Assembly (NCBI GenBank): GCA_965199495.1
Contig: CBDASK010000003.1
Span: 672,001 to 736,000 of the forward strand
Direction: 5' to 3'
DNA length: 64,000 nt
From: Abditibacterium sp.
GTDB taxonomy: Bacteria > Armatimonadota > Abditibacteriia > Abditibacteriales > Abditibacteriaceae
Position 1 is the stretch's first letter. Every line of letters begins with the position of its first letter. The notes below the pieces were generated by a model. The model was not told the DNA's origin and made no database searches. It saw only the letters and a list, made by a program, of their open reading frames with translations. The translations under genes were made by a program, and so were the position numbers. Positions 13,549-63,911 of the stretch are shown one piece after another.

Positions 13549-14420
13549 GAGTCTGTGCTCGAATGGAATAATTGGGTCAGACTGATGTTTGATGCGCCGC
13601 GCTTACGATACTGATTTGACCGACGAACAATGGGCCGAGGTTCGCCCTTATGTGGAGAGTTTTAGAGGACGCCATGCCAGCGTGAGCCGCCGTGAGATCG
13701 TCAACGCCATCCTTTATGTCGCGCACACGGGGTGTCAGTGGAGAAACTTGCCCCATGATTTTCCTACTTGGAGCACGGTGTATTCTTGTTTTCATCGCTG
13801 GAGTTGGAACGGCGTGTTAGACCAATTATATACCTCGTTGCACCAAGAAGTGAGACTTACACACGGTAAAAAAGCAAGGCCAACGCTGGGTATTGTAGAC
13901 AGCCAAAGCGTCAAAGTGCCCGCCAAAGGGGGCACTGCTGTTTGCTGCAAAGGGGCTGGGATGGCGGCAAAAAGATAAACGGGCGCAAGCGATTTGTGGT
14001 GGTGGATTCTTTGGGCTACTGGATCGAGGTGCTGGTATTGCCCGCCAGTGTGCCTGAACGCGCCGGAGCCAAAAAGCTGTTTGTCGAGATGGAAGGGCAG
14101 GAGATGAGCGCCCAGTTGAGCACAATCATCGCGGATGCGGGCTTCGAGGGCGAGGAGTGGCAGGAGCAGATGTATCAGCAGTTTGGCTTAGAGGTTGAGA
14201 TCGTCAAGCGCAGCGACGAGGCCGAGGGCTTTGAGTTGCTGCCTCAACGCTGGATTGTCGAACGCAGTTTCGGTTAGATGAACTACTATCGTCGCTTGAG
14301 CAAAGACTATGAAGGCCATGTCAGGCTCAGCCGGTCTTGGATGCTGTGGGCCATGATCGACAAGATACTTCACACCCTGGAGCCAGATTGGTGAAAATTA
14401 CTCCTTTCGAGTACAGACTC
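13549..14420 (+). mobile_element. IS5-family insertion sequence (872 bp) with 25-bp terminal inverted repeats and a TGA target duplication
   Basis: Left GAGTCTGTGCTCGAATGGAATAATT vs reverse complement of right GAGTCTGTACTCGAAAGGAGTAATT; TGA at 13546-13548 and 14421-14423. Confidence 0.93.
13592..14393 (+). pseudogene. IS5 transposase, orfA/orfB in -1 frame, with a premature TAG
   Basis: YDTDLTDEQW, TGCQWRNLPHDFP, IVDSQSVK / GWDGGKKINGRKR, ADAGF, RWIVERSFG*MNYYRRLSKDYE (TAG at 14275-14277 where Trp is expected). Confidence 0.88.
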
Positions 14421-14462
14421 TGAAGACAACATTCTATCGCGCGTCCAATTCTCTTGTTTGCT

Positions 14463-14650
14463 TTACAAGGGTATTTTTTTGGAATTGTCGTGTGAACCGG
14501 CGCGTGAGCAAGCCGGGCCGTCTCACACTTTAGCGCGTTCTTCTTGCGGTATTAGGCGTGAATGGGTAACAACAAGAGCCAAAGTGTGAGACGGCCCGGC
14601 TTGCTCACGCGCCGGTTCACACGACAATTCCAAAAAAAATACCCTTGTAA
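14463..14650. repeat. Long palindromic element (GTGAGCAAGCCGGGCCG family)
   Basis: About 69-bp arms at 14463-14531 and 14581-14650, differing only by one base in a T/A run. Confidence 0.93.
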
Positions 14651-60175: not shown

Positions 60176-60295
60176 ACAGATTCACGCTTTGAGGGGAGCG
60201 GGGCTAACGCACCCTTCCAATCGGCATGAGGCCGAGGAAAGTCCCCCCGATTGGAAGGGTGCGTTAGCCCCGCTCCCCTCAAGGCGTGAATCTGT
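60176..60295. repeat. Palindromic element, GGGGCT(G/A)ACGCACCCTTCCAATCG family
   Basis: About 49-bp near-perfect arms ACAGATTCACGC...CCAATCGG / CCGATTGG...GCGTGAATCTGT. Confidence 0.93.
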
Positions 60296-60331
60296 AAATA
60301 GATACTGTGTTGGCCGTCAAGAGTTTTGGCG

Positions 60332-61336
60332 TTAATTTTTCAGCCCCTGCGCACAAAACTCGGCATCGAAGGGCTGACCGGACTTGAGCACGCCATAGGC
60401 CAACACCAGCAACTTGCGCATCGCAGCACCCAAGATCAGCATTTTACACTTGCCAGCCTGGGTCAAACGTTGCTTCAACTCGCTAATCACGGGATTGCAG
60501 CGCAGTGCCGTCATCGCCGGATAAAAGAGCGCTTTGCGCAGACGCGGCGAACCGACCTTAGACAGGCGCGGCTTGCCGCGCACGCTCGAACCCGATTCGC
60601 GCAAACACGGCGCTAATCCGGCAAACGCCGCGACCTGGCGCGCGTTCTCGAACTGCGCGATCTCGCCCAACTCGGCCAGGATCAATGCGGCTGTGGCCGC
60701 AGCGATGCCAGGAATCGAGCAGAGCAAACGCACGGATTCGTTCAACTCAGGATGCGCCTGGATGTGCTCTTTGATCTGGTCTTTGGTCGCCCCGATCTCC
60801 CGTTCGAGATAGTCGATGTGAGAGCGCAACGAGTGTTGAACGACCTCACAGGAGGTCACTTCCAGGCGGTTGGCTTCCATCTGCTTCATCTCCTGGAGCG
60901 TCTCGATGCGGCGCACCAGAGCTTGCAGATGCTCGATCTCCGGCGCGGGCGCCTTCCAGGGCGCGGGCCGGTGCAAAGCGCAAAAGCGGGCGATGAGTTG
61001 CGCATCGGCTTTGTCGGTTTTGGTGCGCTTGAGCTGGCTTTTGGCAAAGGCACGCACGGCAGCGGGGTTCACAACCGAGACAAGATGCCCGGCTTGGTGG
61101 AGCGCGCGCGCAAGGGCATCGCCGTAGATGCCGGTGGCTTCTAAACACGCGTGAAGCGTGGGCGCGGATGTGGGCGCTTCTGCACTGGTAGAAGGCAGCT
61201 CTTGCAACCAGTCGAGCAGAAGTTGATGGCCTTGCTCTGTGTTGGCGAAGACTTTGTGGCGCGTTTTGGCGGCGTCTGGGGTGGACAGAAACGCGGCATC
61301 GAGAGTCGCTTTGGAAACGTCTATTCCTAAAAACAT
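60332..61336 (-). CDS. IS110 DEDD recombinase/transposase
   Basis: GIDVSK, EATG, KTDKADA, SIPGI, ESGSS; GAGGAG RBS. Confidence 0.95.
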   Translation of the reverse strand: MFLGIDVSKATLDAAFLSTPDAAKTRHKVFANTEQGHQLLLDWLQELPSTSAEAPTSAPTLHACLEATGIYGDALARALHQAGHLVSVVNPAAVRAFAKSQLKRTKTDKADAQLIARFCALHRPAPWKAPAPEIEHLQALVRRIETLQEMKQMEANRLEVTSCEVVQHSLRSHIDYLEREIGATKDQIKEHIQAHPELNESVRLLCSIPGIAAATAALILAELGEIAQFENARQVAAFAGLAPCLRESGSSVRGKPRLSKVGSPRLRKALFYPAMTALRCNPVISELKQRLTQAGKCKMLILGAAMRKLLVLAYGVLKSGQPFDAEFCAQGLKN

Positions 61337-61384
61337 GAGATTCTCCTCAAACAAAGGGAAACCGAGGGGTTCTTGTTTTTATCT

Positions 61385-61550
61385 TGCAGCCAGCCTTGTC
61401 AATGCGAACTCTGTTGCAAGTCACAACTCGCAACGGCTCAAGATACTGTCCGGCTTGAAAAGACAAAAAAGAACAGGGACAAGAGGCGCAATTCTATCCA
61501 ACAGCTTGCAAGCAGCTCAGGCTCTTATCGGCGTCACTCTTGCCCCTACT
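61385..61550 (-). ncRNA. Predicted IS110 bridge RNA (ends approximate)
   Basis: Contains TAAGAGCCT and TGGATAG (target guides) plus ACAGTATCT and ACAAG (donor guides), in the order known for IS621. Confidence 0.85.
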
Positions 61551-61567
61551 ATTAACATACAAGGCTC

Positions 61568-61611
61568 TTAATCAAAGTTTCATCAAAATCTAATCGAACG
61601 TTAATTTACCC
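61568..61611 (+). promoter_or_regulatory. Pho-box-like 11-bp-period repeats upstream of pstS
   Basis: TTAATCAAAGT TTCATCAAAAT CTAATCGAACG TTAATTTACCC. Confidence 0.55.
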
Positions 61612-61648: not shown

Positions 61649-62683
61649 ATGAACAAATCTTTCTTTTCGGGCGCATCGTTGCGCCAGCGTCTTTTAACGA
61701 CCGGTGCCGTTGCGCTTACTCTGCCGTTTTTGGCACCCACCGCTCAGGCGCAAAACCTGAATGGCGCGGGCGCGACTTTTCCGGTCGCGATTTACACCAA
61801 GTGGTTCGATGTCTACGCCAAACAGACTGGCGTGCAAATCAATTATCAAGCGGTTGGTTCGGGCGCGGGCATCAAACAGCTCAAAGCCAACACGGTAGAT
61901 TTCGCCGGTTCAGACGCGCCGCTTTCCAACGCCGATCTGGCCGGAATGCCCGGCAAAGTCCTGCAAATCCCGACGGTCGCCGGTTCGGTCGCCGTGGCTT
62001 ATAACGTGAAAGGTCTGGGTTCGGGCTTGAGGTTGAGCGGCCCGGTGTTAGCCGATATTTTCGCGGGCAAAATCACCAAATGGAATGCGCCGCAAATCGC
62101 CGCGCTCAACGCGGGCAGAGCGCTTCCAGCGACCGGCATCAGCATCGCGCACCGCGCCGATGGTTCAGGCACCACCAATATTTTCACCTCTTATTTGAGC
62201 GCGGTTTCTCCTTCGTGGAAAGCGCAATTGGGCGCGGGCAAAACCGTGAGCTGGCCCGTCGGATTGGGTGGTAAAGGCAATGATGGAGTTGCCGCGATTA
62301 TCAAGCAGGGCAACGGCACCGTCGGCTATGTCGAACTGGCTTACGCTTCGCAAAACCATTTGACGGTCGCCGCGATGCGCAATAAATCGGGCAAATTCGT
62401 GATGCCATCGGTCGCCGCGACGACCGCCGCCGCGCAGGGCGCCGCCAAAGCCACCGCCAAAGACCCGCGCGCGCCGATCTTCAATCAGGGCGGCAACGCG
62501 TATCCTATCGCGGGCTACACATTTTTGATGTATTACGCGGGCAACAAAAATACCGCCAACGGCAAACAGCTCACTCGTTTTCTCAACTGGGCGATGGGTT
62601 CGGGCCAAAATTACGCCGCCGGTTTGCTTTATGCGCCCCTCCCCAAAGCCGTCGTCGCGAGCAACAAAAGCCGTCTGCGTTAA
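61649..62683 (+). CDS. pstS: Phosphate ABC transporter substrate-binding protein (Sec signal peptide)
   Basis: GAGATFP, YQAVGSGAG, DFAGSDAPL, HRADGSGTT, GKGNDGV. Confidence 0.95.
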   Translation: MNKSFFSGASLRQRLLTTGAVALTLPFLAPTAQAQNLNGAGATFPVAIYTKWFDVYAKQTGVQINYQAVGSGAGIKQLKANTVDFAGSDAPLSNADLAGMPGKVLQIPTVAGSVAVAYNVKGLGSGLRLSGPVLADIFAGKITKWNAPQIAALNAGRALPATGISIAHRADGSGTTNIFTSYLSAVSPSWKAQLGAGKTVSWPVGLGGKGNDGVAAIIKQGNGTVGYVELAYASQNHLTVAAMRNKSGKFVMPSVAATTAAAQGAAKATAKDPRAPIFNQGGNAYPIAGYTFLMYYAGNKNTANGKQLTRFLNWAMGSGQNYAAGLLYAPLPKAVVASNKSRLR

Positions 62684-62733: not shown

Positions 62734-62861
62734 TTTCTGTATTGAGCAAAAATGGCTTTTGATCCGCATCAATTAAAACGGGCTTAACATTGCGGGCTTA
62801 ACATTGTGTTGTCTCCCTGTGGTTCGCGGCGAAAATGTCGTCCGAACTTTTTAAAATCAAC

Positions 62862-63911
62862 ATGAAAAATATGCTATCTTTGAGCGTCGCCGGACTTGCG
62901 CTCTCCTTTGCTCTGGTCGGTTGCGGCGGCAAATCAGCCACCGGCACGACGGGCGCCGCGTCGAGCGTCAAACTCAACGCGGCGGGCGCGACGTTCCCCT
63001 ACCAAATTTACACAAAATGGTTCGACGATTATAAAACCAAAACCGGCGTCGAGATCAATTATCAATCGGTCGGTTCGGGCGCGGGCATCAAACAGCTCAA
63101 AGCCCAGACGGTGGATTTCGCCGGTTCCGATGCGCCGCTCAAAGACAAAGATATGAAAGAGATGCCGTCGGAAGTCGTGCAATTTCCGTCGGTTGGCGGC
63201 GCGGTCGTCGTGGCTTATAGCGTCAAGGGCGCGCCCGCCGATTTGAAGTTGGACGGGCCAACTGTTGCCAAGATTTTCATGGGCACCATTACCAAATGGA
63301 ACGATCCGGCCATCGCCGCCGATAATCCCGGCGCGACATTGCCCGCGACGAGCATCAACACCGCGCACCGCTCCGATGGTTCGGGCACCACCAACATTTT
63401 CACGACTTATCTGTCGCAGATTTCGCCCGAATGGAAAGGCAAACTGGGCGCGGGCAAAACCGTGGATTGGCCCGTTGGCGTCGGCGGCAAAGGCAACGAT
63501 GGCGTCACCAGCGCCATTCAGCAGGGCGACGGCGGCATCGGTTATATCGAGCTGGCCTACGCGATGCAAAATAAACTCAACGTCGCTTCGGTCAAAAACG
63601 CGGCGGGCAAATTCGTCAAACCTTCGGTCGAGACCACGACGAGCGCCATCGAAGGCGCCCTCCCGCTCGTGCAAAAGGACATCACCGCGCCGATTTCCAA
63701 CGCGCCCGGCGACGCGGCTTACCCGATTTCGGCGCTGACCTACCTGCTGGTTTATAAGAAAGGTCAAAACCCGGATCAGACCAAAGCGACGGCTGACTTC
63801 CTGAAATGGGCGATGACCGACGGCCAGCCCGAAGCCGCCAAATTGAATTACGCGCCGCTTCCTAAAGCCCTCGTTGACATCAACATGAAAGCGATTGCTG
63901 AATTAAAATAA
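62862..63911 (+). CDS. pstS: Phosphate ABC transporter substrate-binding lipoprotein
   Basis: Lipobox LVGC; AAGATFP, YQSVGSGAG, HRSDGSGTT. Confidence 0.95.
   Translation: MKNMLSLSVAGLALSFALVGCGGKSATGTTGAASSVKLNAAGATFPYQIYTKWFDDYKTKTGVEINYQSVGSGAGIKQLKAQTVDFAGSDAPLKDKDMKEMPSEVVQFPSVGGAVVVAYSVKGAPADLKLDGPTVAKIFMGTITKWNDPAIAADNPGATLPATSINTAHRSDGSGTTNIFTTYLSQISPEWKGKLGAGKTVDWPVGVGGKGNDGVTSAIQQGDGGIGYIELAYAMQNKLNVASVKNAAGKFVKPSVETTTSAIEGALPLVQKDITAPISNAPGDAAYPISALTYLLVYKKGQNPDQTKATADFLKWAMTDGQPEAAKLNYAPLPKALVDINMKAIAELK

Follow-up and report, generated by a model that had tools for sequence, protein, structure and literature searches.

Targeting of the terminal repeats of another mobile element is reportedly known for IS4321/IS5075. 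Generally, many different targets of IS110 elements have been catalogued (PMC11187229), and natural retargeting is described across thousands of IS110 orthologues (PMC11208160). For IS621, the structural work describes a handshake asymmetry that favors insertion (PMC11208158, PMC13626964) and a 5′ stem-loop that is structurally conserved and whose deletion cut recombination only slightly (PMC11208158), so this stem-loop is not a defining feature. The locus described here has a mechanism of the known IS621 type and is a new example, not a new kind of system. Judged from its sequence, it is probably an IS110 bridge-recombinase element of the IS621 type that is intact, has transposed recently, and is aimed at the ends of IS5-family elements.

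The window, i.e., the whole 64,000-nt stretch of Abditibacterium sp. DNA analyzed, contains an IS110-group element of 1,264 bp (60300–61563, minus strand, both CT cores included), with non-coding ends of 227 nt on the left and 32 nt on the right. Its bridge recombinase of 334 aa (60332–61336, minus strand; PF01548 and PF02371) matches the solved structures of IS621 (8wt6, E 2e-72) and ISCro4 (9t56, E 9e-71). The frame is open; the catalytic residues D6/E66/D108/D111 and S248 are all present, and F271/Y272/M275 form the wedge, the residue roles being set by alignment to the IS621 structure and by the descriptions in PMC11208158. The protein thus combines the DEDD RuvC domain with a Tnp domain that has a catalytic serine and a hydrophobic wedge, as in IS621-type recombinases. 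A preliminary description had called the element a naturally retargeted orthologue from a distant lineage; the retargeted orthologue stands, while the lineage rests only on one named relative (62% identical, labeled Abditibacteriaceae by its source, one among 2,477 matches), by which the host is probably Abditibacteriaceae. Tandem phosphate-binding-protein-like genes (61649–62683 and 62835–63911, plus strand; PF12849 in the first) begin 86 nt from the left end of the element and are oriented away from it.

The same genome (G000) has a second copy (C3:1935052–1936315), identical at 1,264 of 1,264 bases and with different flanks. A profile search for non-autonomous bridge-RNA copies in G000 gave the two full copies only; a third IS110 fragment (C3:3106505–3106741) is a different remnant, not another copy. 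In run X1, the contig spanning 60298–61571 has a depth of 50.4, vs. 21–25 in the flanks, although the doubled depth is not independent support, X1 possibly being the source sample itself. In run X2, from another study and a related strain, a contig passes from 61566 to 60200 with the element absent and 42 other letters between. The same run also has a close variant of the element on two contigs (6 and 11 letters differ); as the match ends at 60298 on one side and 61570 on the other, there may be a third insertion site sharing the same inner flanks. No circle junction occurs in the contigs from four runs, a search of assembled contigs only that does not imply absence of the circle. Insertion is site-specific: the core is present at both junctions, the left arm is common to both copies, the right side pairs with its guide, and run X2 provides the element-free allele.

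On the minus strand, the left target arm TAAGAGC (61564–61570) is followed by the core CT of the left junction (61562–61563) and the right donor TGTAT (61557–61561); at the opposite end, the left donor ACAGTAT (60302–60308) is followed by the core CT of the right junction (60300–60301) and the right target arm ATTTA (60295–60299). The target TAAGAGC-CT-ATTTA and the donor junction ACAGTAT-CT-TGTAT, as proposed earlier, are therefore both read at the element ends. By sequence complementarity, four guides, all on the minus strand, match target and donor around the shared dinucleotide core. The left target guide TAAGAGCCT (61519–61527) pairs at 9/9 positions with the left flank and core at both copies, and the right target guide TGGATAG, of 7 nt (61494–61500), pairs 7/7 by Watson–Crick with CTATCCA at copy 2, and by five Watson–Crick and two G–T pairs at the window site. 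The left donor guide ACAGTATCT (61441–61449) pairs 9/9 with the right end of the element, and the right donor guide AT-(TG)-ACAAG (61395–61403) is discontiguous and complementary to CTTGT and AT of the donor. Chance seldom yields such guides: when 211 nt of the left end were shuffled 20,000 times with dinucleotides preserved, the 9-nt target guide arose in 0.19%, the 7-nt right guide in 0.41%, and the 9-nt donor guide in 0.01%. Both target guides claimed in the preliminary description are confirmed. Every motif listed there as part of a complete system with readable guides is found at its minus-strand position; the discontiguous right donor guide and the element limits are additions to that reading. 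The donor is the IS621 wild-type donor ACAGTATCTTGTAT at 14/14 positions (PMC11208160 supplement) and is bordered by a short repeat, AAC/GTT, of 3 bp; the earlier assignment of IS621 layout and donor is supported.

The flanks of copy 2 rebuild TAAGAGC-CT-ATCCA, with which both target guides pair at zero mismatches. The preliminary description had suggested inspecting the flanks of other copies, and its proposed test target, TAAGAGCCTATCCA, turns out to be the natural site of copy 2. Nature has thus tested the guide reading cleanly, with the second copy exactly where the guides predict, and target recognition by the bridge RNA is almost certain. The 4.8-Mb genome has no uninterrupted site that pairs fully, even with G–T pairs allowed; the nearest are three sites with one mismatch and 40 with two. 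Hence, both fully pairing sites are occupied.

The predicted bridge RNA of about 170 nt (61377–61547, minus strand; its ends inferred, the start from the IS621 promoter register) would present a target-binding loop and then a donor-binding loop. The left end folds as two stem-loops whose internal loops contain the guides (z −2.07), and 16 of 33 consensus pairs show compensatory change among eight aligned left ends; these are related sequences, so the count is support, not a statistical test. Rfam gives no family at gathering score, and its six weak matches are mostly generic hairpins. A −35-like box TTGACG (60315–60320) lies in the right end and a −10-like box TATGTT (61554–61559) in the left, both on the minus strand, and they would come into promoter register in the circular form only. 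As claimed previously, the joined ends would read TTGACG-17 nt-TATGTT, with the spacing and register of the IS621 junction; the boxes fit the consensus at 5/6 and 4/6 positions, a consensus match only. No promoter-like site is seen in the linear region.

The preliminary description did not see the pairing of the handshake dinucleotides, the lack of room for a 5′ stem-loop, or the identity of the target. The target-loop dinucleotide AA (61492–61493, minus strand) is in the register of IS621 A81/U82, and the donor-loop dinucleotide GC (61393–61394, minus strand) is complementary to target positions 6–7 (GC) after strand exchange. With donor AT and target GC, AA/GC makes no Watson–Crick pairs before and three after strand exchange, so insertion should be favored. 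Only 34 nt separate the core from the start of the left target guide, vs. 63 nt in IS621, which leaves no room for a 5′ stem-loop; this distance is 31–36 nt in all 14 parsed loci of at least 55% identity, none of which fits a 5′ stem-loop.

As to the target itself, the target loop is likely to be directed at the ends of IS5-family elements. In the target 14-mer, a 3-bp duplication is followed by the 11 bases with which an IS5-type terminal repeat opens; the left arm accounts for TAA and the first four of these bases, letters that also open the autonomous IS5-family elements of G012 and G020. Copy 2 interrupts an IS5-type miniature element of 162 bp at one of its ends; this element, flanked by TAA on either side, is bounded by TAA-GAGCCTATCCAAATAGG and, on the opposite strand, TTA-GAACCTATCCGAATAGG, with a hairpin inside. 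An autonomous IS5-family element of 888 bp (PF13340) in genome G020 begins TAAGAGCCTATCCGAATAGG and has the ends TAAGAGCCTATCCG and TTAGAGCCTATCCG. Each end of the 162-bp element differs from the left end of this IS5 at one of 20 positions (the mid-duplication base left free), and these two ends are the best two of 15 sites within four mismatches of the G020 20-mer on the chromosome with the IS110 copies removed, where control patterns gave three sites and one; a hairpin adjoins nine of the 15.

Genome G012 shows the same arrangement with other letters. Its two autonomous IS5 copies begin TAAGAGCCTGTCTTCACG (start letters TAAGAGCCTGTCTT) and end in TTAGAGTCTGTCTTCACG; such ends recur on miniature elements of about 200 bp. 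An IS110 orthologue (59% identical, frameshifted) interrupts one such miniature element at TTAGAGC-CT-GTCTT; its guides are TGAGAGCCT on the left and AAGACAG on the right, the latter pairing 7/7 with CTGTCTT, and an uninterrupted sister of the host element is present (L111/L112). A left-end-only IS110 remnant (L137, G012:C1, about 6183403–6183620), with the whole bridge-RNA region and no recombinase gene, has the guide TAAGAGTCT next to the flank TGAGAGT-CT and matches the other IS5 end variant, GAGTCTGTC. The guides fit that genome's own IS5 ends and, hence, the guides of the two species differ in step with IS5 ends. The same terminal repeat bounds autonomous PF13340 elements with a 3-bp T-N-A duplication in G020 and G012, and the copy-2 site and the G012 site are each one end of a paired-end miniature element. 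Three-bp T-N-A duplications together with such ends presumably mark the IS1031/IS427 subgroups of IS5.

The fit is weaker at the window site, where 11 bases agree with the IS5 end, no partner end is visible, and the site falls outside the 15. No autonomous IS5 element bearing these ends was found in G000: its two PF13340 matches have other ends (GAGTCTGTGCTCGAA), which do not fit the guides, and were rejected as targets. IS5-end targeting is based on two genomes (G000 and G012). A pattern scan of the phylum matched 42 of 401 genomes, and 30 of its 44 matches were fetched; among these 30, IS110-left-end-like loci occur only in G000 and G012, the rest being mostly chance. A second pattern was discarded, since it missed its own positive control.

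Several further IS5-related structures were seen. The IS5-family element of the window (13549–14420, plus strand; PF13340) has the ends GAGTCTGTGCTCGAA / GAGTCTGTACTCGAA, a TGA duplication, and its transposase in two frames; beyond it, at about 14455–14650, is a long and perfect palindrome, separate from the element, and the second such element of G000 lies at C3:1158486–1159300. Palindromes of 46 and 53 bp in G000 (C3:3233484–3233529 and 957809–957861) consist of two IS5-like ends face to face, the 46-bp one being the best uninterrupted near-target in the genome. The reverse case is found in G020 (L013, C1:2346492–2350454), with an IS5-family element inserted in the bridge-RNA region of an IS110 orthologue, whose target loop is thereby severed; downstream is a partial IS5 that has the end TAAGAGCCTATCCGAATAGG. 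In G012 (L105, C1:849215), about 55 nt separate an IS5-like end from a CRISPR-like array, the repeat of which starts GTTTCAATCCCAGAAGGG.

Alternatively, the selected target might be the flank of a large hairpin repeat, REP-like and perhaps with a structural role as in ISPpu10, with the likeness to IS5 being secondary. A long hairpin with 49-nt arms, 98% complementary, abuts the target (60176–60295), and its core belongs to a G000 family of 207 arms in about 95 inverted pairs. Both element copies sit just outside a hairpin arm, about 20 and 35 nt away, vs. about 0.2% of strand positions lying within 80 nt upstream of an arm; the window site, a poor IS5 end, nevertheless abuts the 49-bp hairpin; palindromes are the targets of IS621 and of the relative in genome G004; and for ISPpu10 a stem-loop at the target is described as adding specificity (10.64898/2026.03.19.712850). 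However, it is to the outer end, not to the hairpin, that the guides correspond. The core arms GCGGGGCTGACGCACCCTTCCAATC are nested in outer ends of three kinds, and the IS5-like one, T(A/T)AGAGCCTATCC, lies upstream of only nine of the 207 uninterrupted arms, the others being TATAGCCCTTC (31) and TAGACCTCTTGCA (7). Weaker hairpin matches occur in three of five relatives searched, but the G012 host miniature element has none, G012 matching only at two other places, and the ISPpu10 stem-loop, according to the same source, is 5′ of the target, whereas the hairpin here is 3′. We therefore regard the hairpin as unlikely to be what is selected, although the two readings can be compatible with each other. 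A RAYT-associated REP/REPIN origin of the hairpin is not supported, the nearest arm being 1.8 to 40 kb from each of six loci for Y1 transposases (PF01797).

It is distinctly improbable that the element, though recent, has become an inactive relic. The genome retains no fully pairing empty site, the contigs of four runs show no circle, and the G012 relatives are broken, as would suit a relic; the two copies are, however, 100% identical, with an open frame, all catalytic residues, and intact putative promoter halves, and a close variant apparently occupies another site in run X2. Very improbable, finally, is retargeting by drift or flank capture with a chance match to an IS5 end: close relatives do have several unrelated target guides on one scaffold, and the IS5-type guide is seen in two genomes only, but both ends of the copy-2 host element fit a real IS5 end at 19/20 positions with a TAA duplication, and the G012 guides follow the two IS5 end variants of their own genome.

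Guide choice may be followed further among relatives of this IS5-directed element. Five copies in G004, 69–70% identical, are the nearest relative; they have an almost identical scaffold and the guide GGTGTCTCT, and are located at the end of a GTAG-type palindrome. In a tree of 17 chosen rows, G004 groups with the element (support 100/98) and the G012 element is not placed as sister, so that the tree fits IS5-end targeting either as ancestral or as arisen twice. Guide parsing covered 46 loci, of which 32 were parsed (duplicates included) and 14, copy 2 among them, were not. The left guide is within two mismatches of the flank in 27 of the 32, partly by construction, since the guide was picked as the best match and the donor was in the search pattern. 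Close relatives have the same scaffold with several unrelated target guides, which implies that guides change readily. More tentatively, a compact bridge lineage, with no 5′ stem-loop, a 7-nt right target guide, and an insertion-set handshake, may parasitize IS5-family elements, its loop tracking the end variants of each genome and its insertions disabling miniature-element repeats. If so, the sister species with a near-identical scaffold and another target would be a natural before-and-after pair for guide rewriting.

By analogy with IS621, the element would leave as a circle, and the joined ends would form a sigma-70-type promoter that drives the bridge RNA of about 170 nt. A recombinase tetramer would then hold both loops in their pairings, ACAGTAT-CT-TGTAT in the donor loop and TAAGAGC-CT-ATCCA in the target loop, the ATTTA site presumably being tolerated via the two G–T pairs; cleavage beside CT via phosphoserine links would lead to insertion in one orientation. 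According to a 2026 preprint, however, the circle released by IS621 is single-stranded, in which case excision may proceed otherwise than assumed here. The presumed benefit is that the ends of IS5-derived miniature elements would be multi-copy, intergenic, and safe landing sites. An IS110 element that inserts a few bases into the terminal repeat disrupts it, and the host element should then stay immobile until the IS110 element exits.

A literature search, mostly of open-access sources and with ISfinder outside its scope, gave no report of an IS110 element aimed at IS5 ends, and the choice of this target is probably undescribed so far. One target in the PMC11208160 supplement contains TAAGAGCCTGTCTT, with the core apparently two bases further on, so IS5-end targeting may lie unremarked in those data. 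As the mechanism is already known, the value of the new example is modest. Still, IS5-type ends join the mobile-element ends struck by IS110-family elements; a compact scaffold is combined with the IS621 donor, and the natural 7-nt right target guide and last-handshake C are both features that have been engineered into IS621; and the relatives that share the scaffold and differ in target bear on natural bridge-RNA retargeting.

Compared with IS621 of Escherichia coli (PMC11208160, PMC11208158, PMC13626964; 8wt6), the element shares the recombinase family, catalytic residues, 14-nt donor, and CT core; the left-end bridge RNA with four guides, the discontiguous right donor guide, and the handshake register; and the putative junction promoter with its 17-nt spacer and the short repeat bordering the donor. 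The target differs, as the preliminary description had noted: TAAGAGC-CT-ATCCA here, and the REP target ATCGGGC-CT-AC in IS621. The right target guide here pairs over 7 nt, the core-to-guide distance is 34 nt instead of 63 nt, the 5′ stem-loop exists in IS621 only, and the donor loop here has a longer inner hairpin; the IS621 handshake AU/GU makes one and then three pairs, whereas AA/GC goes from zero to three. ISCro4/IS622 (10.1101/2025.05.14.653916; 9t56) has the same layout and mechanism, but keeps the 5′ stem-loop (positions 1–34) and is 88% identical to IS621, while the element described here belongs to a separate clade with a short left end. ISPpu10 and ISPpu9 of Pseudomonas putida are reported as likewise IS110 elements at repeated intergenic palindromic sites; here, it is the repeat's outer end that the guide fits, and the hairpin is 3′ of the site. 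Assignment to the IS1111 group, with its sub-terminal inverted repeats of 7–17 bp and right-end RNA, was rejected, given a right end of 32 nt, guides on the left, and a donor repeat of only 3 bp. IS4321/IS5075 are similar in being IS110-family elements that seek out the terminal repeat of a different mobile element; they differ in belonging to the IS1111 group, with sub-terminal repeats and a right-end RNA, and in that their host is a Tn21-family transposon and not an IS5-family element.
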